Assembly (NCBI GenBank): GCA_001189215.1
Contig: LFCR01000002.1
Coordinates: 10,677-74,676 of the forward strand
Reading direction: 5' to 3'
Length of the DNA stretch: 64,000 nucleotides
From: Parcubacteria bacterium C7867-008
GTDB taxonomy: Bacteria; Patescibacteriota; Minisyncoccia; Phycocordibacterales; Phycocordibacteraceae
Both the position numbers and the translations under genes were made by a program. Numbering within the stretch: position 1 is the stretch's first letter; the number at the start of each line of letters is the position of its first letter. Shown here piece after piece: positions 52,867 through 64,000 of this stretch. A model generated the notes under the pieces. The model worked only from the letters and a program-made list of their open reading frames with translations. It made no database searches and had not been told where the DNA came from.

Positions 52867-53634
52867 CTACACGAGTGGCCAAAGATTCTTAAACACCTCC
52901 CGTTGATCATGCGCCATGAGCTTGTCATGGATTTCAACAAGGTAAAACGGTTTTGTACGGGTATTAATCATGATTAGATAGTCTCCCACAATCCACGTGG
53001 TGGAGAGGAAGTCAGCTGCCTCTCCCCAGAACTTAATATTTCGATTCTTAAGGTGTCCACGTGATTTAGCAAATTGGACTTCAATTGGCGCACGATTACT
53101 TAACAGCTTAAGGTCAATACCTTCTGGCCAACGGAGCCAGTACCAACTTATCCATTCGTTGTAGTGTTCAACAAAAGTATGGTCTTGGAATCCCCACCAG
53201 GTGCGCTCATCGGTAGCGAGCAAGTTAGCATCCCAGACTTCTGCTTGTTGATGGAGAAAAGAAGATATCTTTGATTCTTCAATAAATCGAACGGTTGGGA
53301 CCGGATACGCAGTCTTAGCTGAAATCTTGGAAAGCTCAGCTGCTACTTTCTTTAATGTCTCCTCCTTAAGGACCAGCTTTTGTCTCTCACCTTCAATAAG
53401 TCCAATGATCTCGTCAGGAGTTGATGGCATAAACACACGAGGTCTTCGTGTTGAGTCTTCCGTAAGTAAACCCTTCTCTACTAACGAACGTGCAACGCTA
53501 TATGCTGTAGTGCGTTTCATCTGCGCCGCCTTAGCAAGACCTGCTGGTGCCAACGGGCCATTTTGAAGAATAGCTTGGTATAGAGCCAATTCGCTGTCAT
53601 TTAAATTAAGCGATTCAAGTAGTTTCTCGTCCAT
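52867..53634 (-). CDS. TrmB-family transcriptional regulator
   Basis: N-terminal winged helix LALYQAILQNGPLAPAGLAKAAQMKRTTAYSVARSLVEKGLL; TrmB-type C-terminal domain. Confidence 0.65.
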   Translation of the reverse strand: MDEKLLESLNLNDSELALYQAILQNGPLAPAGLAKAAQMKRTTAYSVARSLVEKGLLTEDSTRRPRVFMPSTPDEIIGLIEGERQKLVLKEETLKKVAAELSKISAKTAYPVPTVRFIEESKISSFLHQQAEVWDANLLATDERTWWGFQDHTFVEHYNEWISWYWLRWPEGIDLKLLSNRAPIEVQFAKSRGHLKNRNIKFWGEAADFLSTTWIVGDYLIMINTRTKPFYLVEIHDKLMAHDQREVFKNLWPLV

Positions 53635-55018: not shown

Positions 55019-55052
55019 GCCGCGCTGCTAGTCAGCGCGGCTTTGTTTTATT
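55019..55052 (+). terminator. intrinsic terminator (gccgcgctg-ctagt-cagcgcggc-tttgtttta)
   Basis: seen in sequence. Confidence 0.7.
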
Positions 55053-56232
55053 CAAAATACTTCCTCTTCTTTAATTTCTCAGGCAAATAACTCTCTTCGT
55101 CATACATCTCATACCCCTTACCGTACTCAAGATCTTTCATAAGCTTCGTGGGTGCATTACGGATGTGTTTTGGTACCGGAAGATTACCCATCTTCTTTAT
55201 ATCTGCTTGTGCAGCGCGTAGTGCATCGTATGCAGAACGATCTTTCTTTGCTTGAGCTAGGTATGCAACACCATGAGCAAGATTTATTGCACATTCTGGA
55301 TATCCAATTACTTCGCATGCTCTAAACACTGCATTAGCCACCACTAGTGCTGTTGGTTGTGCCACGCCTATATCTTCTGAAGCGAAGATAACCATCCTGC
55401 GCGCGATAAAGAGTGGGTCTTCACCTGCTTCAACCATGCGTGCTAGATAATACACAGCAGCATCTGGTTGGGACGCGCGCATGCTTTTTATGAATGCACT
55501 GATAGTGTCGTAGTGTTCGTCACCCTTTTTGTCGTAGCGAAGATGCGGAGATTCTAGTGCTTTATTAAGAGTGTCAACGGTTATCTTTCCATAGAGACTG
55601 GTGGTGCTGTCTAGGAGAGTAAGGGCACGCCGTGCGTCCCCATTCGCATATCCCATCAACCATTCAAATGCATCCCTGCCGAGCTTTAGTTTGGCGCGCT
55701 TCACAATAGCTCGTAATGATTCTTCTGAAAGTGGTTCTAGTACAAACACTCTGCAACGAGACAGGAGTGCAGGTATCACTTCGAAGGAAGGGTTTTCTGT
55801 GGTTGCACCAATAAGTGTTAGCTTCCCACTTTCAACATACGGAAGAAGAAAGTCTTGCTGACTTTTATTAAACCGATGTATCTCATCTAGAAACAATACT
55901 TTTGGGCGCTCAGGTGCGAACACATCATCCGAGAACGGTTCTTGAAATGTGTTCTTCCCTCCCCTACCCTTTGCTGCTCCATCTACTATCTGACGAATGT
56001 CTTCCTTCCCCGCAGAAACGGCTGAGAGCTCGTATAGATCTGCATCTAATGCTTTGGCATAGATGCGTGCAATGGTCGTCTTACCGGTCCCTGGAGGGCC
56101 CCACAACAGGAACGAGAATCGATGTCTCTTCTCTATTGCAACTCGTATCGGCTTCCCTTCTCCTACCAAATGCTCTTGGCCCACGAACTCATCAAGAGTC
56201 TTAGGCCTGAGACGTGCTGCAAGAGGTTCCAT
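55048..56232 (-). CDS. rarA: replication-associated recombination protein A (RarA/MgsA AAA+ ATPase)
   Basis: LLWGPPGTGKTT, LFLDEIHRFNKSQQD, MgsA C-terminal domain. Confidence 0.9.
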   Translation of the reverse strand: MEPLAARLRPKTLDEFVGQEHLVGEGKPIRVAIEKRHRFSFLLWGPPGTGKTTIARIYAKALDADLYELSAVSAGKEDIRQIVDGAAKGRGGKNTFQEPFSDDVFAPERPKVLFLDEIHRFNKSQQDFLLPYVESGKLTLIGATTENPSFEVIPALLSRCRVFVLEPLSEESLRAIVKRAKLKLGRDAFEWLMGYANGDARRALTLLDSTTSLYGKITVDTLNKALESPHLRYDKKGDEHYDTISAFIKSMRASQPDAAVYYLARMVEAGEDPLFIARRMVIFASEDIGVAQPTALVVANAVFRACEVIGYPECAINLAHGVAYLAQAKKDRSAYDALRAAQADIKKMGNLPVPKHIRNAPTKLMKDLEYGKGYEMYDEESYLPEKLKKRKYFE

Positions 56233-56303
56233 ACATAAAGGGTACGCCGGTGTATCTGAAAATCAATCGAACACCATACCAAAACTCGTGATACCCTACC
56301 CTC

Positions 56304-56924
56304 ATGAAGAAGGTCTATATTGTTGGCATCCTGACGACTATTGTGCTTATTTTAGGTGTTTTCTACTTCGCTCAAAATAATTCTGGAGTAGATTTAACTA
56401 CTGTTACAGTGCAATTTCTTCCTGATAACAGTACGTACGGCAAAGGGACATTAACTCCACAGCAACAGCAAATTAAAGATGTAGCGTTTTCTCTCCTGCA
56501 AAAGTTTAACCATGCGAGCGAAGAGAATCGAGATGGCTATACCCTTCTTGGCGTCGGCCATACATACGTCGTAATGCGATACTATCCAGCAACCTCATTA
56601 TTCCCACGCGATTATGTGATTGATCTAAAAAAGAGAACCGTGCACGGACTTGAAACAGGCTATTCATTCCAAACCCGTGACACTATTGTCTACATATTTT
56701 CAAAGCGTATAGCGTACCTAAAACTGGACCAAGGATTTAGTATCGAACTACCAAATTCACTCTTGGGTGCTGATGAAACCTACGAGCCTAGCGACGGTCT
56801 TTTACCTAAACCAGAAGTAATCCAAACGGAAAGTTCTTTTGCCGTGTCTATTTTTACTAATGAATCTGAATATGGAAGTGTTGAGCATAAGAAGGTTCGC
56901 GAACAAACGTTTCAAATACCTTAA
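56304..56924 (+). CDS. hypothetical membrane-anchored protein, AT-rich
   Basis: N-terminal TM helix; start of a low-GC block. Confidence 0.45.
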   Translation: MKKVYIVGILTTIVLILGVFYFAQNNSGVDLTTVTVQFLPDNSTYGKGTLTPQQQQIKDVAFSLLQKFNHASEENRDGYTLLGVGHTYVVMRYYPATSLFPRDYVIDLKKRTVHGLETGYSFQTRDTIVYIFSKRIAYLKLDQGFSIELPNSLLGADETYEPSDGLLPKPEVIQTESSFAVSIFTNESEYGSVEHKKVREQTFQIP

Positions 56925-58697
56925 TTAATCCTCCCAGACAGTCGGTGTCTCCTTAGCGTTCTGAAGTGAGGAGTGGGCAACAATACTAACCATGTGTTCC
57001 TCTTTAACGTGATGCATTTGTGCAAGCTCTTTCTTATATTCAACCCATCGCTCTAGCAGATGTTTCTGCGACATCTTATCTAAATCATAGATACCCGGCG
57101 TCTGTTCACCAATCGAGAGAAGATGTGCAGCCTGCATGGCACCGATATACAATAGACAGCGAGTAAGAACAATATCTTCATCTGGTGTTGAATCTTTGAT
57201 GCGATCAAAGTTAATGGGATAGCCACCATTAAGTATTTTTAGATCTAAATCATCGTGAACCGTAACGATTTGGGTGCCATAAACATCTGAAGTTGGTTCA
57301 GCTAGTTTGAGTAACGATCCAAACTCCACATCTGCAGAGGATGCACTCACAAGAACTTTAGAGCCTGAAACACGTTCAAGGGCAGTACCAACAATTGAAT
57401 CAGTACCCACGGTTCCGACTATTAAATCGCACTTGTTTAGAAGTACATCAATTGAGCTTATGGAATTCTCTGGTACCGAGTCACTTGAGTGATAGGTTGG
57501 GTCATAACAAAGTACGGTTCTTCCCATTGCAGTAAGCGCTCTTTGCACTGCTCCACCAATACTACCTACACCTAGAATGCCTATCTGTTTTGAATCAGAA
57601 ATAGCACCTAGTTCATTTAGTTTCTTAACAACAGAGATTCCAATGAATTCGGATTCAATCAACTTCTTAATACCCGAAGAAGCAACGCTAATTATTGGTG
57701 GAGTCTTTATGGTGCTTCCCTCAACACGAGTGATCCCTCGTTGAGTTTGTTCAACACCAACAATTTGTACTCCCTCTAACTCCTTCCAGGGTATTGAGTG
57801 CCAGAGATCTCCACCATCATCCACAATTAGAAGCTTCTTAAAACGGTACTTCTTTTGGCTCTCAATAACCTTCCTCCACAACACTTCAATACTTTTCTGT
57901 GTAGCGAATTCATACGGCATACCTGCCTCCATATGCACTTTCGTTACGTCGTATCCAGATCTAACAAGATCATTAAATACTGAGCGTATGGTTGAGTATG
58001 GCTTTTCAAGAATATATATACGCCCAGGCGCTACGAGATGTGAAAGATGTCTAAAGAATGGAGAGCTATTGGGCAGTAAGTGGGTATGCACAATAATTGC
58101 GCAATCAGGAAGTCTTGATCGTGTTGTATGATCCGCTGCCCAATCAAGCAGAGGGAGAGAACTAATGGGCTGTGGTACGTGATCTGCTCGTGCCAATGCT
58201 ATGAAGTAGTTTCTGAATTCAGAAGCTTGTGCTGTTTCCTCTTGGAGTAGGGACGAACCAAAGTACATAACATCGCACTCCGTGTCTGCAATTAGTGTCC
58301 ACTCTCCTATTTGGCGAGAACGCTTAGTTAAAAGCCAGTCACTTGTTTCGAATAGTCCAATGAAATCTCCTGGTCCGAGAGTCTTAGTCCCCTTTCCTGC
58401 TTTTAACACAACAATATTTCCTCTTAGCACCACCCCAAGTGGGACATGCGCATATTGTAGGTCTGGATTAGAATCAATATCACAAGCTGTTAGTACTCCA
58501 TCGTTAACAACTTCTACACCTTTGCAATATTCAGCGACAAGAACCTTCCCACGCTTCTTTGCAAGGAATACCTGAAGCGCATTAGCATTAGCTACCGGTA
58601 TCTTGTGATATCCAACAGAAGTATCAGACGAAATACGTTCTAGTACACGCTGTACTACTTGCAGATCAGCCTCTTTCCATGAAACAGGTATGTTCAT
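56925..58697 (-). CDS. fusion protein: N-terminal cyclic-nucleotide-binding-like domain plus C-terminal S-adenosyl-L-homocysteine-hydrolase-like domain (with NAD-binding Rossmann region)
   Basis: GPGDFIGLFE cNMP-binding motif; KLLIVDDGGDLWHS (AdoHcyase DDGGD signature); IGILGVGSIGGAVQRALTAMGRTVLCYDP Rossmann. Confidence 0.5.
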   Translation of the reverse strand: MNIPVSWKEADLQVVQRVLERISSDTSVGYHKIPVANANALQVFLAKKRGKVLVAEYCKGVEVVNDGVLTACDIDSNPDLQYAHVPLGVVLRGNIVVLKAGKGTKTLGPGDFIGLFETSDWLLTKRSRQIGEWTLIADTECDVMYFGSSLLQEETAQASEFRNYFIALARADHVPQPISSLPLLDWAADHTTRSRLPDCAIIVHTHLLPNSSPFFRHLSHLVAPGRIYILEKPYSTIRSVFNDLVRSGYDVTKVHMEAGMPYEFATQKSIEVLWRKVIESQKKYRFKKLLIVDDGGDLWHSIPWKELEGVQIVGVEQTQRGITRVEGSTIKTPPIISVASSGIKKLIESEFIGISVVKKLNELGAISDSKQIGILGVGSIGGAVQRALTAMGRTVLCYDPTYHSSDSVPENSISSIDVLLNKCDLIVGTVGTDSIVGTALERVSGSKVLVSASSADVEFGSLLKLAEPTSDVYGTQIVTVHDDLDLKILNGGYPINFDRIKDSTPDEDIVLTRCLLYIGAMQAAHLLSIGEQTPGIYDLDKMSQKHLLERWVEYKKELAQMHHVKEEHMVSIVAHSSLQNAKETPTVWED

Positions 58698-58707
58698 GAG
58701 TACCTGG

Positions 58708-59433
58708 TTACGAACCCTTCTTTAGAGAACACGTATACACCTGACAGTTGTAGTTAAAGTCTGGGCCACTGTATGCAGGATCATTCCAGTCATTCTTTTC
58801 TTCAAAGTCATCTATCTTAAGGTTGTTTGTTTCAAGTGCTTTCTTAAAGCGAACAACATCTCCGGACTGTGAGAAACCTAGATACAATTTGCCATCTTCC
58901 TTAAGGAAATGTTTAACCTCTGCTAGAAGGGTTTCCATGGCGTAGTAATCAGCATCTATAACACCCTTCTCGAGATCATTTGCTGGAACACCGTTATGGT
59001 ATGGAAGATTAAATATGATCGAATCATATGCAATCTTTGGAACGTTTGAGAACACATCTGAAACCACAGCCACAGCATTTGTGAGCTTAAATTTCTCAAA
59101 GTTAATCTTAGTATTTTCAATAGCCGCAGGATTAATATCAGCTGCAGTGATAGATTTTGCACCACGCAGACCAACAAACACTGAAACGAGACCAGACCCA
59201 GGACCTAGCTCAAGTACATTCTGCCCTGAAAAGTCTTTTGGGATGTAATCAATCATGTACACACCTGCCCAGTCGTACTTGGGCGACATTACACCAGGTA
59301 GTACAGTAATTTCCTCGCCAAATACTGTTACGTCGTATGGGGCAGTATGTGTATTAACCTTATTCAAGTATGGACGTGTGGTTAGGTGAATCTGATCATC
59401 ATCGAGAGCGGTAAGATATTCTTTTTCGTTCAT
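58708..59433 (-). CDS. class I SAM-dependent methyltransferase, MTS/HemK-RsmC-like (NLPY motif)
   Basis: motif I VLELGPGSGLVSV; motif IV IIFNLPYH; 10 nt upstream of the fusion gene. Confidence 0.75.
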   Translation of the reverse strand: MNEKEYLTALDDDQIHLTTRPYLNKVNTHTAPYDVTVFGEEITVLPGVMSPKYDWAGVYMIDYIPKDFSGQNVLELGPGSGLVSVFVGLRGAKSITAADINPAAIENTKINFEKFKLTNAVAVVSDVFSNVPKIAYDSIIFNLPYHNGVPANDLEKGVIDADYYAMETLLAEVKHFLKEDGKLYLGFSQSGDVVRFKKALETNNLKIDDFEEKNDWNDPAYSGPDFNYNCQVYTCSLKKGS

Positions 59434-59472
59434 GGCCCAAATTTAACTTTAGTTTTCAGAAAAGTCAATTTA

Positions 59473-59559
59473 TAGTCATTAGTATATTCATATATATAAA
59501 TGACTAAATACATTGATATTTAATGATTTATTAGATAATATAGTCATAAATATATGACT
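59473..59559. promoter_or_regulatory. AT-rich divergent promoter region with two inverted repeats built on AGTCAT/ATGACT (TAGTCATT-N18-AATGACTA at 59473-59506; AGTCAT-aaatat-ATGACT at 59542-59559, overlapping the regulator's ATG)
   Basis: seen in sequence. Confidence 0.4.
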
Positions 59560-60297
59560 GTTAAAAATCAGAATCATCTGGAAAATGCTTTAAAGGTTGG
59601 TCTTTCTGCTAAAGCAGCAAGTGTATATGTAACGCTTCTCGAAGCCGGTTCTGCACTTAGTCCGAAAGCACTTATCATTAGAACCTCTCTTCATCGACAG
59701 TACGTATACGACGCACTATATGAACTGGAAGAACGCAGACTCATTAGTACATCTGGTGAGAAGAGAGCAATTAAGTATTTGGCCACTAGCCCAGATAGAT
59801 TGCTTCAAGATGTAGAAAAGCAGCGCCTAGAAACTATTGATGGCGTACAAGCGCTTATGAAGCTGTACGATCACTCCCCTGCTGGTTTCGTTGAAATTAT
59901 ACGCGGCAGCAAAGCAGCCATTGAGAGTGAATTCAAAATGATTACTGAAGCAAAGAGGGGTGATTATCTAGATATCGTTGGAGGGGCTGGCATGAGCTTT
60001 GTTCAACTTTTTGAAGGCCGTATTGAGGAATGGGAGCAGCTGCGTAAAGAGAAGCAAATTAAACTACGCTATATCGGTACTGATGAAGATGTTCGACACA
60101 ATAAAGAGATTAGCGTTATACAGAATGAATCACGTGCCATACCGGGTATCGGTAACATCGTTAATGTTTGTATACGCCCCGAAAGCGTAAGTTTTAATAT
60201 CTACGAACCCGAGATCGTAACAGTTCGTGTACGCAATCAAGCTGCTGTATTAAGTCAGCGAGCACTATTCGAAGTGCTTTGGAATGTGGCTAAATAG
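59554..60297 (+). CDS. TrmB-like winged-helix transcriptional regulator
   Basis: N-terminal GLSAKAASVYVTLLEAGSALSPKALIIRTSLHRQYVYDALYELEERRLI resembles the TrmB HTH. Confidence 0.55.
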   Translation: MTVKNQNHLENALKVGLSAKAASVYVTLLEAGSALSPKALIIRTSLHRQYVYDALYELEERRLISTSGEKRAIKYLATSPDRLLQDVEKQRLETIDGVQALMKLYDHSPAGFVEIIRGSKAAIESEFKMITEAKRGDYLDIVGGAGMSFVQLFEGRIEEWEQLRKEKQIKLRYIGTDEDVRHNKEISVIQNESRAIPGIGNIVNVCIRPESVSFNIYEPEIVTVRVRNQAAVLSQRALFEVLWNVAK

Positions 60298-60324
60298 TTA
60301 CCGTAACGCACTGTAGTAAATTTG

Positions 60325-60395
60325 TGCGGGATAGGAGAATCGAACTCCTGTCTGCTCTTTGGAAGAGAGCCATTTTACCATTAAACTAATCCCGC
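60325..60395 (-). tRNA. tRNA-Gly (anticodon UCC); no encoded CCA
   Basis: revcomp GCGGGAT TA ... GCTCT-CTTCCAA-AGAGC ... AGGAG-TTCGATT-CTCCT-ATCCCGC-A folds as a cloverleaf with 7-bp acceptor stem, U33, TTCGATT T-loop. Confidence 0.85.
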
Positions 60396-61066
60396 TCTTT
60401 TATTTTCTCTAACGCTACCTCACTCCAAACCTGAATCTTTCTCGCGAATCTTACCCCGAATTCCTTTCTTCCACGAGCCCGTACATTTATATGCAGGGTT
60501 CCAAATGGAAGCTTTTTAAATGTCCTGTTCTTCTTTTTGCTTCTTAGATCAAGAATAGTCTTTTGGAACTGGGACTCTGGAATCGTAGTCGCTTGAGACC
60601 AAAATTGCAAACATTGAGAGTTATCTAGATCAGGATATATATACATACGAGCCGTAAATTGATCAGTCTCAACTCCCAACAATCTGAACCAAGCCACCAT
60701 ACAACGCATTACCTCAGGGTTTGAATTACTTACAGCGACTATTCCATTTGTTTTTGACCCTTCACCTAAGTAGATCGCGAGTCCAAATATGAATAAATCT
60801 CTATTGGTTATTTCACCAATTTCCACTAAAACAGTCTCGCGTAATTCATTTAGCTCCGTTTTGAGTACTTGTGCTCGTTTTTCTCCCGCAGCTGCTCTCG
60901 CTTTTCCATAGAGTTTAATGACTTCTTCATTTGGTTTATATGGAACTTTACTCAGCCAATTACTTAGAGTGCTTTTAGGTATACCTAACTCCTTCGAAAT
61001 ATACAGATATGAATATCCCTGTTTTCGTAAATCAATTGCAGTTTCACGTGTTGGCAGATTATGCAT
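60386..61066 (-). CDS. HTH plus LAGLIDADG-like (degenerate) homing-endonuclease-like protein; 3' end overlaps the tRNA-Gly 5' end by 10 nt
   Basis: N-terminal HTH YSYLYISKELGIPKSTLSNWL; IFGLAIYLGEGSK resembles the LAGLIDADG dodecapeptide. Confidence 0.45.
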   Translation of the reverse strand: MHNLPTRETAIDLRKQGYSYLYISKELGIPKSTLSNWLSKVPYKPNEEVIKLYGKARAAAGEKRAQVLKTELNELRETVLVEIGEITNRDLFIFGLAIYLGEGSKTNGIVAVSNSNPEVMRCMVAWFRLLGVETDQFTARMYIYPDLDNSQCLQFWSQATTIPESQFQKTILDLRSKKKNRTFKKLPFGTLHINVRARGRKEFGVRFARKIQVWSEVALEKIKERD

Positions 61067-61143
61067 ACGCTGTAGAGGTAGCGTAACAATTCAGTGATCA
61101 ATACTTGATAAGGAGAAAATCAAATATTCCTTAACCTATCTTT

Positions 61144-62379
61144 TTGAACGTTCTGTTGTACCCTACAGCTATGAAAGTGGTAGTTCTAGGGATGGTTGCT
61201 GCGCTGGTATTCAGTGCAGGGGCTGCGTATCTAGTATTCGTACCAAATAGCCAGAAGCCAATTCCTATAGCAACACTCACTGCTGCAGCTGGTTCCACGA
61301 TCTACGACACATCCAGTATCGTGGAACTGTTTCGTCAGCTGTTCGTTCTTCAACAGAAGGTGAAGGAACTGCAACCACCACTGGCGACTACAACAATTCC
61401 CTTTGCTCCCAACGTTGGAACGACCACTACAAGCAAGAAGGCTCCAGTAAAGGCCGTGAAACCTGTTGCGCCAAAAGTTGTGGCACCAGTGAACACAGAA
61501 ACGAAGCTTGGCCTTGCGCTCCCTAAACTACGCAGTGCAATCGTAAATATTGTCTGTATCCCAAACAAAGCAGGTACAGGGCTACGAGGTATCTCTGGTA
61601 CCGGTGTCATTATCGACTCACGTGGCATTATTTTGACCGTGGCACACGTTGCGCAGTATGAATTGATTGCAGCTGCACGTCCTGATCTCCTTACGTGTGT
61701 GGTACGTACTGGTAGTCCAGCTGCTTCTGCGTATTTTGCTAAACCTATATATGTTTCACAGGACTGGATTGATCGTAATTCGAAACTACTTTCCTCTTCT
61801 GATCCCCGTGGAACGGGTGAGGATGACTTTGCACTGCTTGCCATAACTGAAACAGCCACCAAGACTCCCCTGCCAGCCAGCTTCCCTTCTGTTTCACTAG
61901 CTAACAACACACCAACTCTCAAACAGGGTGTTGTTATAGGTTCGTATGGTGCTGAGTTTCTAAGTACAGAAACTATCCGTTCTGGCATATTCCCCACCCT
62001 CGTATTCGCATCCGTTAAAGATCGTCTCACCTTTGGTTCTCAGATGGTTGATCTGATATCTCTTGGTGGCGGGGCTGCTGCACAAGAAGGGTCTTCAGGA
62101 GGAGGTGCAGTGAACGAAGACGCGCAATTAGTTGGGCTGATCACCTCACGTTCTAACGCAGCAAACCTAAACGATCGCGATCTGCGTGCTATCACAAACA
62201 CTTACCTGCAAAGCGCATTCCGTGAAGAGACTGGTGAGTCTATAGACTCATTCCTTTCTACAGATAGAAAATCTCTGGTGAGCGATTATGCGTCTGACGC
62301 CACAAAACTCGGGGCCATGCTCGTAAAGGTAAACCGTATCACCAATCAGGTTTCAATCTCAACCCCAACAGGATTGTGA
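61144..62379 (+). CDS. membrane-anchored trypsin-like (S1 family) serine protease
   Basis: catalytic triad context TVAHV ... DFALL ... QEGSSGGGAV. Confidence 0.65.
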   Translation: MNVLLYPTAMKVVVLGMVAALVFSAGAAYLVFVPNSQKPIPIATLTAAAGSTIYDTSSIVELFRQLFVLQQKVKELQPPLATTTIPFAPNVGTTTTSKKAPVKAVKPVAPKVVAPVNTETKLGLALPKLRSAIVNIVCIPNKAGTGLRGISGTGVIIDSRGIILTVAHVAQYELIAAARPDLLTCVVRTGSPAASAYFAKPIYVSQDWIDRNSKLLSSSDPRGTGEDDFALLAITETATKTPLPASFPSVSLANNTPTLKQGVVIGSYGAEFLSTETIRSGIFPTLVFASVKDRLTFGSQMVDLISLGGGAAAQEGSSGGGAVNEDAQLVGLITSRSNAANLNDRDLRAITNTYLQSAFREETGESIDSFLSTDRKSLVSDYASDATKLGAMLVKVNRITNQVSISTPTGL

Positions 62380-63122
62380 TCTGAACCATGAAGTTCTGGG
62401 TGTACCCACGCTCTGCACGCCTTAACCCCATCTGAAAGAAGAATATGATCAAGTTGTGACCGTGAGAAATTGTGTGTCACTTTCCCTTTCAAAGGATTCT
62501 TAAGTTTCACACCTTCAAATCGTTCTTCAAACAAATCACGTTCTGGGTACCACGGTACCGCTTGTGACAGAGGTGCGCCAAGCAGCCAGTTAAGTATCTT
62601 CATTGGACCGTATTCAATCACATTGAAATCTCCACACACAATTGCTGGTAGCTCTGGCTGGATGTGCCCCACTACTGCTTCGAACTCCTGTGCACGATTG
62701 TGTGGGCCCCAGAGCGTTAAGTGCACTGAGAATATTCTTGTCAGAACACCGTTACCTAAATCAATATCTGCATACACGGCACCGCGCTCTGTTACAAAAG
62801 ACCACTGAAACATGCGCATAAATCCTATGAACAGCCGTGTATGTAGTGGAAATCCGAAATCGAAGAATTGCAAAGTTCCTTGATTGGCAATCGAATGTTT
62901 TGAAAGTATTGCTACATAATTCTTTTCTTGTCTTTTATCAGACATCAATCGTATTACATCTACATGATAGGTAAGATGAAAGGGCATCTTCTTAATATAT
63001 GCGAGAAGTTCTGGTGTTACTTCTTGCAAGCAGAGCACATCAAAATCCAGATTATCAATAAACTTGCACATTTCCTTGAACTTAGTGTTGTAGCAATAAA
63101 CGTTCCAGGAATATATTTTCAT
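62346..63122 (-). CDS. endonuclease/exonuclease/phosphatase (EEP) family protein
   Basis: CLQEV ... GDFN ... SDHNPV motifs. Confidence 0.75.
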   Translation of the reverse strand: MKIYSWNVYCYNTKFKEMCKFIDNLDFDVLCLQEVTPELLAYIKKMPFHLTYHVDVIRLMSDKRQEKNYVAILSKHSIANQGTLQFFDFGFPLHTRLFIGFMRMFQWSFVTERGAVYADIDLGNGVLTRIFSVHLTLWGPHNRAQEFEAVVGHIQPELPAIVCGDFNVIEYGPMKILNWLLGAPLSQAVPWYPERDLFEERFEGVKLKNPLKGKVTHNFSRSQLDHILLSDGVKACRAWVHPELHGSDHNPVGVEIET

Positions 63123-63229
63123 GTGTATTAAATAGTACTGCGCAAAACCGATAATTCAATGAAGTCTGTATTGAAAGGACCTTTCATAAATTACCGCAGT
63201 CTGGGTCGACGCTAGAACTTTACTGGCAC

Positions 63230-63565
63230 TTGACAACAAATGAGTACTGTGAGATTATAGCTATGGGTCGGAGGCACTCGATGCCGACCTGCCTTAGGCA
63301 CTTTCCCTAGGAAAGACGCGCCGAAAAGCCTCGATTGGACTTTGCTACCAGTAGCGTAAAGAAATAGGCACTACGTTGATACCGCTTGGGAAACCAAGCA
63401 AAGTTTGAGACGTGTAATTGTTTAGTCTAAGCACTACAGGAACGTTAAAAAGCGATTGACTGCATCCTAGGGCTGCTATCGGTCCGCTCATCAAAACAAC
63501 GCGAAACTCTACGGAGTCTCGCAACAAGGTCGCTACCTCACGGTGCGGCCTTTTTCTTTTATAAA
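63230..63565 (+). ncRNA. candidate structured non-coding RNA of about 300 nt, identity unresolved
   Basis: no ORF above 60 aa on either strand; TTGACA-17-GATTAT promoter-like hexamers at 63230-63258; multiple hairpins (one with a GGGAAACC loop); intrinsic terminator at its 3' end. Confidence 0.3.
63527..63565 (+). terminator. intrinsic terminator (GGUCGC-11 nt loop-GCGGCC followed by UUUUUCUUUU)
   Basis: seen in sequence. Confidence 0.55.
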
Positions 63566-63612
63566 GTTCGATACCTTTAGGCAGGGGTGGCAGCCTGGGA
63601 CGATGTTGGAAC

Positions 63613-64000
63613 CTATTTCACTCTGGCGATGAAATGAAACACATGCCAATGTTTCATTATTCCCGCGGCTGTAGGCTTATCTACCTCTTCCTCCTCAAAT
63701 TCAAGTACCGTTAGCTTTTCCAAAAGCTTTTCAGCTTCAGCACGGGTATGAAAGGTCATTGTGTCCTTTCCCTGCCACTCATCTCGGTCTCCAAAGAATT
63801 GGCCCGTGAAAATTCCACCAGTCTTTAATGATCTAATGATTTCAGACCATACTTTTTCAAATTGATCAGGGTGCAGGAATGGAAGGGTATATTGTGCATT
63901 TACGAGATCATATTCTTTAGCACGAAACGTAAATGACTCCATTTTCTCAACGACGTATGTAAATTTATCTGCTGGAAGTTTATCTGCAATTTCTGTCGCC
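63613..64000 (-). CDS. class I SAM-dependent methyltransferase, C-terminal part (gene continues beyond window end)
   Basis: open frame runs past position 64000 without a stop; translation AGIMKHWHVFHFIARVK end typical of a small MTase. Confidence 0.55.
   Translation of the reverse strand, partial: ATEIADKLPADKFTYVVEKMESFTFRAKEYDLVNAQYTLPFLHPDQFEKVWSEIIRSLKTGGIFTGQFFGDRDEWQGKDTMTFHTRAEAEKLLEKLTVLEFEEEEVDKPTAAGIMKHWHVFHFIARVK

Follow-up and report, generated by a model that had tools for sequence, protein, structure and literature searches.

Two adjacent genes in a 64,000-nucleotide stretch of DNA (the window) from Parcubacteria bacterium C7867-008 may, in our leading but tentative interpretation, represent the compact form, found in the candidate phyla radiation (CPR), of a conserved three-part module that processes a nucleoside-type small molecule by S-adenosylhomocysteine hydrolase (SAHH)-like NAD chemistry. 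The parts of this module would be a ligand-binding domain with a cyclic-nucleotide-binding (CNB) fold, an NAD-dependent enzyme of the SAHH superfamily, and an MTS-class N-methyltransferase. The observations behind this interpretation are the folds of the proteins, a near-invariant sequence signature, the fusion or adjacency of the parts in other genomes, and ECF-importer-like operons outside the CPR. Recurrence of the pairing across many uncultured bacteria, frequently as a fusion and, beyond the CPR, frequently next to a vitamin-type importer, points to an uncharacterised small-molecule pathway, not to a defence system; the main rival explanation is dedicated removal of SAH.

SAHH is among the most conserved enzymes known, and to our knowledge its fold has very few known branches with a different function. 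The branch analyzed here combines a fixed signature of its own with an obligatory CNB-fold partner, repeated fusions to a highly conserved N-methyltransferase and, outside the CPR, a dedicated ECF-type importer, and it offers a testable way into a new enzymatic activity, a new class of CNB-fold ligands, and the substrate of an orphan ECF S component. CPR bacteria rely on scavenged metabolites, and their genes of this branch may mark a salvage function whose current annotation, "adenosylhomocysteinase" or "NAD(P)-dependent oxidoreductase", is wrong. Such mis-annotation would distort reconstructions of SAM-cycle metabolism in these bacteria.

Gene organization and the divergent regulator

The preliminary description had placed the methyltransferase gene directly upstream of the gene encoding a 590-aa protein, and our analysis reproduced this arrangement, with both ORFs on the minus strand (Table 1). 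The two genes are 10 nt apart, and this spacer contains no terminator-like site. The motifs quoted at that time were recovered as well: GPGDFIGLFE (residues 108–117) and LLIVDDGGDLWHS (residues 289–301) in the 590-aa protein, FNLPYH in the methyltransferase, and a Rossmann NAD site, which corresponds to a GxGxxG loop at residues 373–378 of the 590-aa protein. Both ORFs are genuine genes rather than products of chance. For the 590-aa protein, more than 150 full-length homologs (38–100% identity, about 70 invariant positions) were found, for the methyltransferase 55 homologs, and the predicted structures reach a pLDDT of 89.2 (pTM 0.87) and 94.7 (pTM 0.91), respectively.

Table 1. Positions of genes, domains and motifs in the window.
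Feature	Position	Strand	Remarks
241-aa MTS-class SAM-dependent N-methyltransferase gene	58708..59433	-	motif I and motif IV
Motif I of methyltransferase, ELGPGSG	59191-59205	-	
Motif IV of methyltransferase, NLPY	58999-59010	-	
590-aa fusion protein gene	56925..58697	-	stop codon 56925-56927 included
CNB-fold domain	58152..58565	-	residues about 45-182; motifs YAHVPLG, GDFIGLFET (58344-58370)
SAHH-fold core	56928..58151	-	residues 183-590
H206 of SAHH-fold core	58080-58082	-	
DDGGD	57807-57821	-	residues 293-297
K344..E348	57654-57668	-	
GxGxxG	57564-57581	-	residues 373-378
SASSADVEF	57321-57347	-	residues 451-459
NGGYPINFDR	57201-57230	-	residues 490-499
Divergent AT-rich intergenic region	59434..59553	.	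putative promoter and operator
247-aa TrmB-like winged-helix regulator	59554..60297	+	Pfam TrmB 23.7 bits, just below 25.6 cut-off

The TrmB-like gene is transcribed divergently from the methyltransferase gene and is a conserved neighbor in the clade of the window locus, with homologs in the same position at four further loci (L004, L005, L006 and L023). At locus L025, an N-terminal wHTH is apparently fused to a protein of the order MTase-CNB-SAHH-like. The intergenic region carries TAGTCAT/ATGACTA inverted repeats at 59473-59487 and 59492-59506 and a third copy at 59539-55, an arrangement that suggests a putative operator.

Domain architecture and active-site signature

The 590-aa protein consists of N-terminal helices, a CNB-fold domain and an SAHH-fold NAD enzyme, in this order. 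This combination of folds had been considered to lack a prior description, and our literature search gave no match either: nothing relevant was retrieved on a fusion of SAHH and CNB or on adenosylhomocysteinase in Patescibacteria, nor on SAH hydrolase-like proteins, CD3073, or ECF together with adenosylhomocysteinase.

The earlier assignment of an AdoHcyase-like domain holds for the fold, for the DDGGD motif and for counterparts of the catalytic Lys, Asp and His, but not for a Pfam match or for Glu156, His301, Asn181 and Asn191, four residues that are invariant in SAHH. The predicted structure shows the two-domain SAHH fold, composed of a substrate-binding domain and an NAD Rossmann domain. 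Neither the Pfam models AdoHcyase and AdoHcyase_NAD (PF05221/PF00670) nor the NCBIfam adenosylhomocysteinase model matched the 590-aa protein, and identity to AhcY/SAHH is just 15–20%. Three distant relatives lacking the CNB domain (L030, L032 and L033) score above the PF00670 cut-off.

Based on HMMER and HHalign alignments, five SAHH positions have kept counterparts: Lys186 (K344), Asp190 (E348, a conservative Asp-to-Glu exchange), Thr157 (T318), His55 (H206) and Asp131 (D294). Numbering is that of a human SAHH sequence with the expected 432 aa, and the residue roles are those given for SAHH in the literature. Over 138 divergent representatives at the 50% clustering level, the five residues are conserved to 78–99%, and the GxGxxG loop, Asp399 and many further pocket residues to at least 95%. 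At other positions SAHH residues are replaced: Glu156 by Q317, His301 by S454, Asn181 by A339, Asn191 by S349, Thr158 by Q319, and Thr159 by R320. Thr57 and Glu59 of the adenine site, which align to L208 and N210, are apparently not kept. Although foreign to SAHH, Q317 (113 of 124 sequences), S454 (124/124), K232 (123/124) and also A339 are near-invariant in the family. Further differences from SAHH are the new invariant residues Lys232 and Tyr234, the deletion of Glu243, the added N-terminal CNB-fold domain, and a C-terminal tail that appears to differ from the Lys426/Tyr430 tail of SAHH; for this tail and for the region of the His353-Phe gate, no sequence method gave an alignment. Because this signature is near-invariant in the 138 representatives, non-SAHH residues included, the active-site pattern indicates a constrained enzyme with a chemistry of its own. 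SAH hydrolysis by the 590-aa protein must be regarded as unproven, since four active-site or NAD-site residues of SAHH are replaced by near-invariant others.

By our proposal, the core would retain tightly bound NAD+ and the machinery acting on the ribose 3'-OH (Lys344, Glu348, Thr318, His206 and Asp294), and because this machinery is kept, SAHH-type chemistry could be expected, in which transient 3'-oxidation of a ribonucleoside would permit elimination or addition at C4'-C5'. Around the base and the 5' substituent, the pocket appears to be rebuilt by Ser454, Gln317, the invariant Lys232 and Tyr234, Leu208 and Asn210, so that the enzyme probably acts on a 5'-substituted nucleoside different from SAH, or on a wider range of such nucleosides than SAH alone. 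Simple hydrolysis of SAH would fit the retained ribose and NAD residues equally well.

A similar division applies to the postulated cNMP-binding fold, for which an eight-stranded beta-roll with cassette helix and flanking helices is present in the predicted structure, but neither a Pfam match nor the canonical phosphate-binding cassette. Pfam cNMP_binding (PF00027) did not match the 590-aa protein even at E ≤ 1, and the cassette (G-E-x-A-L ... R-[ST]-A; Gly-Glu...Arg-Ser/Thr-Ala) is not reproduced: in an HHalign alignment with CRP, Glu72 of CRP is unpaired and Arg82-Ser83 lie opposite Thr118-Ser119. Compared with the cNMP_binding domains of CRP, PKA-R, PKG, HCN/SthK and Pycsar effectors, the cassette is ~3 residues longer and has G-x-F-E-T as its family motif where those domains have G-E-L. 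Their Arg-Ser/Thr-Ala element is not conserved across fused and split forms of the family, and the Arg128 region is not kept in the split CNB partner proteins. Since the canonical cassette is not reproduced, control of the 590-aa protein by a cyclic-nucleotide second messenger, as envisaged in the preliminary description, is best treated as unproven. The domain may bind a small ligand, cyclic nucleotide or not, and thereby gate the enzyme or present its substrate.

The methyltransferase has the Pfam MTS domain, the SAM-binding motif I and a class I MTase fold. Its motif IV reads N-L-P-Y instead of [DN]-P-P-[YFW], so that the first Pro is replaced while Asn and Tyr are kept (NAPY at locus L039); the homologs share Asn142, Pro144 and Tyr145 without exception, with Leu143 at least 90% conserved. 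All NCBIfam equivalog cut-offs were missed, with the best score obtained for PRK14968.1-3 (74.7 bits, cut-off 162) and lower ones for RsmC (52.6, cut-off 295) and PrmC (49.4, cut-off 199). The NLPY motif, as opposed to NPPY, separates the protein from PrmC/HemK, HEMK2/Mtq2, PrmA, RsmC/RlmG, METTL5 and Asc-Orf2. An N-terminal invariant segment of its own (TTRPY..K..H..Y...P.M.P.YDWAG) sets it apart from other MTS-class N-methyltransferases, and the family is unusually conserved, with 55–100% identity across phyla. In the proposed module, it would N-methylate the substrate or the product as an adjacent step of the pathway.

Relatives, fusions and importer context

Clustered at 50%, the SAHH-like branch comprises about 200 representatives (E ≤ 1e-30); homologs number roughly 1,200 in all. 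The gene pair recurs elsewhere: many contigs carry the methyltransferase gene as a neighbor, and several lineages have fusions of either order. The methyltransferase gene adjoins the gene for the large protein in the window and at loci L004-6, L034 and L039, precedes it in fusions from L023, L025, P0112, P0115 and P0187, and follows it in those from L021, L022, L024, L028, P0195 and P0200. For 24 of the 55 methyltransferase homologs, the longest contig of the source has the same size as that of a source of a homolog of the 590-aa protein. In a species-representative scan, no methyltransferase adjoined the gene in a clade at 47–56% identity (L001-3 and L007-20).

Neighbors that recur in CPR loci are only the methyltransferase, the TrmB-like HTH and a DUF1294 ORF (three loci); the others are heterogeneous housekeeping genes. 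An example is a cluster of ribosomal genes, where the gene is flanked by map and adk.

Among the Proteobacteria, the Acidobacteria and unclassified bacteria, the CNB domain forms a protein of its own, encoded next to a CNB-less SAHH-like gene, and a homologous CNB-domain partner was found at seven of the seven CNB-less loci with flanks. These split genes of non-CPR bacteria usually share an operon with ECF-importer-like S, T and A genes, which are present at L028, L034, L036, L039 and L043; the L039 operon comprises six genes, and its split CNB protein has 412 aa. The S component scores 99–113 bits against NCBIfam ECF_S_CD3073, under the equivalog cut-off, and the highest scores of the ATPase are those against ECF/CbiO ATPases, likewise under the NCBIfam equivalog cut-offs; the T component had no profile match. 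Locus L043 contains the importer, the CNB protein and the SAHH-like gene and lacks the methyltransferase; the SAHH-like enzyme therefore has a role independent of that methyltransferase. A search of 10 non-CPR loci and of the window from 52 to 64 kb for a riboswitch or leader that could name the ligand returned no Rfam family, a tRNA aside.

With a single gene each for S, T and A next to enzymes acting on the presumed cargo, the non-CPR operons resemble group I ECF transporters such as BioMNY and CbiMNQO. Unlike in these systems, the S component matches just the uncharacterised "CD3073 family", the ATPase of the relatives is extended by about 190 aa at its N terminus, and the ECF genes are missing from the window. 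Non-CPR bacteria would import the small molecule by this dedicated ECF-type transporter, and a CPR cell would acquire it by other means. For the CPR form, the importer context is an extrapolation, because ECF S/T/A genes were found neither in the 64-kb window nor in CPR loci. A more specific version of our proposal, which we put forward as possible though rather doubtful, is that the CNB protein, the SAHH-like enzyme, the N-methyltransferase and the CD3073-type ECF importer constitute an unrecognised salvage or processing pathway for a nucleoside-derived micronutrient or metabolite. The SAHH-like step would then be a reaction new to the SAHH superfamily, an NAD-dependent cleavage or exchange of a non-homocysteine 5' substituent, the CNB fold would be repurposed to bind the metabolite, and the genes of the window would be a streamlined, fused version.

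Alternative explanations

The preliminary description had favored a methylation module with its own SAH removal. Here, a divergent but genuine SAH hydrolase would relieve product inhibition of its partner, possibly by channelling within a complex or fusion, with the CNB domain as an allosteric switch. The partner methyltransferase necessarily yields SAH, the two proteins are fused in both orders, and the 590-aa protein retains the SAHH fold, DDGGD, Lys186, Asp190 (as Glu), His55, Thr157 and the Rossmann site. In addition, the 590-aa gene is the sole match of human AHCY in the 64-kb window, and the database entry identical to the protein (Parcubacteria bacterium C7867-008) is already named "Adenosylhomocysteinase". 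Nevertheless, we consider this explanation somewhat less likely than the leading one: Glu156, His301, Asn181 and Asn191 have given way to Gln, Ser, Ala and Ser, with the Gln, Ser and Ala near-invariant in the family, Thr57 and Glu59 of the adenine site are apparently lost, and Pfam detects no AdoHcyase domain. Moreover, many members have no methyltransferase nearby, including that of L043 beside an importer only, and the ECF operon and the obligatory CNB partner are left unexplained.

The protein shares the combination of an SAHH fold and an extra N-terminal regulatory region with AHCYL1/AHCYL2 (IRBIT), and by analogy to AHCYL1/IRBIT of eukaryotes it could be an inactive regulator that senses adenosine, SAH or NAD and controls the methyltransferase or transporter. 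Several canonical catalytic residues are indeed altered, and AHCYL proteins are among the best sequence (profile E 3e-9 to 8e-9) and structure matches. IRBIT, however, is non-catalytic, and its extension lacks a CNB fold, being disordered and regulated by phosphorylation, whereas the pocket analyzed here is under strong purifying selection. Conservation of the catalytic Lys, its acidic partner, the His, the Asp and the pocket to at least 95% over 138 representatives is typical of active enzymes and makes a purely regulatory role improbable.

Even less probable is the other suggestion of the preliminary description, a Pycsar/CBASS-like defence effector in which a cyclic-nucleotide signal received by the CNB domain would switch on an enzyme altering or depleting SAM, SAH or NAD. 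No cyclase was found next to any of about 40 loci, the phosphate-binding cassette is non-canonical, conservation of partners extends to an importer and an N-methyltransferase, with the non-CPR forms residing in ECF-importer-like operons, and in CPR genomes the gene is surrounded by housekeeping genes such as map and adk. PADLOC gave no match for either the CNB or the SAHH-like part. It reported mad2 over the methyltransferase core (residues 283-416 of 492), mad3 over the ABC core in relatives, and otherwise generic P-loop matches for genes of the window and of the non-CPR clusters. Membership in MADS was rejected, as the mad2 and mad3 matches cover generic MTase and ABC cores only, and the MADS preprint treats MAD1-5 as accessory components without diagnostic value.

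An ordinary D-2-hydroxyacid dehydrogenase, or an unrelated Rossmann protein with DDGGD by chance, which had been named as the outcome that would overturn the original assignment, has next to no likelihood: 2-Hacid_dh_C is the sole Pfam match above threshold (35 bits) and PdxB, PGDH and D-LDH are the best single-sequence PDB and NCBIfam matches, but neither a full-length match over catalytic and NAD domains nor the closest fold was obtained for the dehydrogenases, and the family profile matched SAHH chains at E 5.5e-10, with SAHH as the nearest family by sequence profile.

Operon structure and surroundings

The two minus-strand ORFs of the preliminary description lie exactly where they had been placed (see table), and both are real genes. 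They encode a 241-aa SAM-dependent N-methyltransferase of the MTS class and a 590-aa protein joining a cyclic-nucleotide-binding (CNB)-like domain to an S-adenosylhomocysteine hydrolase (SAHH)-like core. The quoted motifs were recovered as well: GPGDFIGLFE, LLIVDDGGDLWHS and the GxGxxG loop in the 590-aa protein, and FNLPYH in the upstream protein. A database entry from Parcubacteria bacterium C7867-008, annotated "Adenosylhomocysteinase", is identical in sequence to the 590-aa protein. More than 150 full-length homologs (38–100% identity) were found, chiefly in metagenomes of Patescibacteria (the candidate phyla radiation, CPR), and an alignment of 32 homologs contains ∼70 invariant columns. 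Since only 10 nt separate the methyltransferase stop codon from the ATG of the 590-aa ORF and no terminator-like site was found between them, the two genes are very probably co-transcribed.

A TrmB-like winged-helix gene is divergently oriented, and its homologs occupy the same position in four loci from other genomes (L004, L005, L006 and L023). The 120-bp AT-rich region separating the divergent genes carries TAGTCAT/ATGACTA inverted repeats, which could be an operator for the TrmB-like regulator. A second TrmB-like paralog is encoded less than 7 kb away, and in L005 the same TrmB-like protein cluster is found on either side of the module. The TrmB-like gene is directly followed by a tRNA gene (Rfam, 71 bits), which overlaps by ∼10 nt the 3′ end of a 226-aa ORF whose product has an HTH at its N terminus and faintly matches a homing endonuclease (Hom_end). 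A 394-aa P-loop ORF (Walker A GPPGTGKTT) neighbors the module in the window and, in synteny, in L004; its translation resembles an AAA ATPase of the RarA/MgsA type. The G+C content is 0.41–0.44 at positions 56001–64000, compared with ∼0.47–0.53 in the first 22 kb of the window. The operon is situated where G+C is lowest, which may reflect horizontal acquisition.

Features of the window and of homologous loci in other genomes (L numbers)
Feature	Location	Strand	Remark
MTS methyltransferase ORF, 241 aa	window 58708..59433	-	translation
CNB-SAHH-like fusion ORF, 590 aa	window 56925..58697	-	translation
TrmB-like winged-helix gene	window 59554..60297	+	divergent from methyltransferase gene
Divergent intergenic region	window 59434-59553
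Inverted repeat TAGTCATTAGTATAT / ATATATAAATGACTA	window 59473-59487 and 59492-59506		intergenic region
Third copy TATAGTCATAAATATAT	window 59539-59555		overlaps start of TrmB-like gene
TrmB-like paralog	window 52867-53634	-
P-loop ORF, 394 aa	window 55048-56232	-	counterpart L004 7780-8967
tRNA gene	window 60325-60395	-
226-aa ORF	window 60386-61066	-
DUF1294 ORFs	L009 1919-2251; L010 3297-3590; L011 7744-8037
ECF-type ABC ATPases	L034 9537-10667; L036 2899-4119; L039 4434-5738; L043 4499-5710
Caspase-like gene	L001 7743-9524
836-aa ORF	L025 114-2624
Methyltransferase gene	L034 6001-6723		JAEPBN010000003.1

Fold and active site of the 590-aa protein

In the Pfam search suggested by the preliminary description, neither cNMP_binding nor AdoHcyase matched the 590-aa protein. 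The only match was 2-Hacid_dh_C (35 bits, about the first 60 residues of that Rossmann fold), and NCBIfam gave PdxB and PGDH below threshold. Taken alone, these curated-profile results could seem to indicate an ordinary 2-hydroxyacid dehydrogenase, an outcome named beforehand as refuting the fusion; fold and profile evidence exclude it with next to no doubt.

We placed residues relative to human AHCY by HMMER and HHalign alignments, using what we take to be the human sequence (correct length of 432 aa, motifs aligned in register); their roles are those described in the SAHH literature. Retained are His206, Ser235, Glu316 and Thr318 (human His55, Ser83, Glu155 and Thr157), Asp293/Asp294/Asp297 (Asp130/Asp131/Asp134), Lys344 (Lys186), Glu348 (Asp190), Asp456/Glu458 (Asp303/Glu305) and the GxGxxG loop. 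Altered are Thr57/Glu59 (to Leu208/Asn210), Glu156 (Gln317), Thr158/Thr159 (Gln319/Arg320), Asn181 (Ala339), Asn191 (Ser349) and His301 (Ser454), and Glu243 is deleted. By these residues, the SAHH machinery for ribose-diol binding and C3′ oxidation by NAD+ is present, and the parts handling the 5′ substituent and the base appear to be rebuilt.

We analyzed conservation in 138 representatives clustered at 50%, of which 14 carry a fused CNB domain and 124 do not. Among the retained positions, H206 is conserved in 122/124 representatives and S235, K344 and E348 in 123/124 each; among the family-specific ones, K232 and Y234 in 123/124 each, Q317 in 113/124 and S454 in 124/124. N496 and T512 are likewise present in 124/124. 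This near-invariance of both sets points to an active enzyme whose active site is fixed and particular to the family, rather than to an SAHH in decay or a pseudo-enzyme.

The CNB-like domain has two conserved motifs, Y-x-x-[IV]-P-L-G and G-x-[FL]-x-G-x-F-E-[TV]. Because it lacks the canonical Gly-Glu...Arg-Ser/Thr-Ala cassette, and Arg128, a possible mimic of the phosphate-binding Arg, is unaligned in forms with a split CNB domain, cyclic-nucleotide binding is unproven. The proposed cNMP-binding/SAHH-like fusion is partly supported: the CNB motifs and part of the SAHH catalytic residues are present, and the Pfam match, the canonical cassette, Glu156 and His301 are absent.

Partner genes of the SAHH-like core

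The SAHH-like core, used as query in an exhaustive search, returned 1,992 representatives at E ≤1e-3, 1,186 at ≤1e-10 and 205 at ≤1e-30. Beyond the fused forms, we found a large CNB-less group (∼400–450 aa, ∼32% identity), almost all metagenomic, from Acidobacteria, Proteobacteria and unclassified bacteria. Their annotations read hypothetical, "NAD(P)-dependent oxidoreductase" or "S-adenosylhomocysteine hydrolase". In all seven CNB-less loci with usable flanks (L028, L029, L034, L036, L039, L042 and L043), a neighboring gene encodes a homologous protein of ∼400–530 aa, whose N-terminal part shares the CNB motifs and is matched by an HMM of the window CNB domain (E 8e-16 to 3e-4). Hence it is the CNB and SAHH-like parts that make up the conserved pair; CPR bacteria have them fused, other bacteria as separate proteins.

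Five of these seven loci contain three genes of transporter type in the same orientation as the CNB-protein gene, with ECF assignments scoring below curated cut-offs: a multi-TM S-like protein of ∼205–247 aa (matches of 99 and 113 bits to NCBIfam "CD3073 family putative ECF transporter S component", short of its equivalog cut-off of 180), a TM protein of ∼240 aa, and an ABC ATPase with ECF/CbiO ATPases as best matches. L039 harbors a complete six-gene operon, S-T-A-CNB protein-SAHH-like-MTS methyltransferase, and L043 the same type without the methyltransferase. No ECF-like genes were found within the 64-kb window or among the CPR loci. In the non-CPR clusters, the ABC ATPases have a ∼190-aa N-terminal extension without Pfam, NCBIfam or PADLOC match.

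As the preliminary description had suggested, we surveyed gene pairing in 30 loci from scanned species-representative genomes and in looked-up contigs, and found the pairing to be meaningful. Methyltransferase homologs are encoded directly upstream as separate genes in the window, L004, L005 and L006, adjoin the SAHH-like gene in L034 and L039, and are fused N-terminally in L023, L025 and the proteins P0112, P0115 and P0187, or C-terminally in L021, L022, L024, L028, P0195 and P0200. For 24 of 55 methyltransferase homologs, including members of the clade with 47–57% identity, the longest contig is of the same size as that of some homolog of the 590-aa protein. That fusions arose independently in both orders argues strongly for a functional coupling of the two proteins. 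This coupling is not obligatory: many CPR members have no methyltransferase near the CNB-SAHH-like gene, e.g. on a Berkelbacteria chromosome (closed, 929 kb) and on a contig of 541 kb, and none of the 55 homologs matched these two by size.

The 836-aa ORF of L025 appears to be a four-part fusion with a putative DNA-binding domain, combining a winged helix (FeoC/HTH_24 matches at residues 25–68), the methyltransferase, a CNB-like domain (HMM match at 343–467) and the SAHH-like core. The L034 methyltransferase from Ca. Thiodiazotropha endolucinida, a gammaproteobacterial symbiont, is 65% identical to the CPR methyltransferase; its adjacent SAHH-like proteins are ∼30% identical to that of the window. 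This likeness would reflect either extreme constraint or transfer between phyla. In three CPR loci without methyltransferase, a DUF1294 ORF (97–110 aa) lies directly 3′ of the CNB-SAHH-like gene, and on the 541-kb contig a 593-aa caspase-like (Peptidase_C14) gene overlaps its 3′ end.

Proposed function

Based on the rebuilt 5′/base pocket, the obligatory CNB-fold partner, the importer context and the methyltransferase-free operons, we tentatively propose that the module acts in the processing of a small molecule of nucleoside type. Folds, residue conservation, fusions and operon contexts are the observed base of this mechanism. The SAHH-like core would bind NAD+ and catalyze an SAHH-type transient 3′-oxidation of a ribonucleoside, leading to elimination/addition at C4′-C5′; N-methylation would be an adjacent, optional step, and the CNB fold may bind the processed metabolite or a related effector.

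The main rival, put forward in the preliminary description, is that the protein serves to clear SAH for its partner methyltransferase. It is the most economical account of the two-gene operon and of the fusions. We consider it somewhat less likely; it leaves unexplained the importer, the methyltransferase-free forms and why Glu156 and His301 are consistently lost. The conserved pocket makes an inactive regulator resembling IRBIT (AHCYL1, an SAHH-like protein with an N-terminal regulatory extension) improbable. Less probable still is the cyclic-nucleotide-triggered defence effector of earlier speculation: no locus has a cyclase gene next to it, PADLOC matches neither the CNB nor the SAHH-like part, the mad2/mad3 matches concern generic cores of components that the authors of the anti-phage system MADS call non-diagnostic, and the CPR copies are located amid housekeeping genes.

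The preliminary description knew of no such architecture, and in the searchable literature, which is incomplete and whose silence is no proof, we found nothing on a CNB-SAHH fusion, this SAHH-like branch or a CD3073-type ECF cluster. The folds are already known; the architecture, active-site signature and operon were not. The proposed nucleoside-processing module can be tested in well-defined ways, which could reveal a new activity in the SAHH superfamily, a new ligand of CNB folds and what an orphan ECF transporter carries. The label "adenosylhomocysteinase" is flagged as a systematic mis-annotation in CPR genomes.
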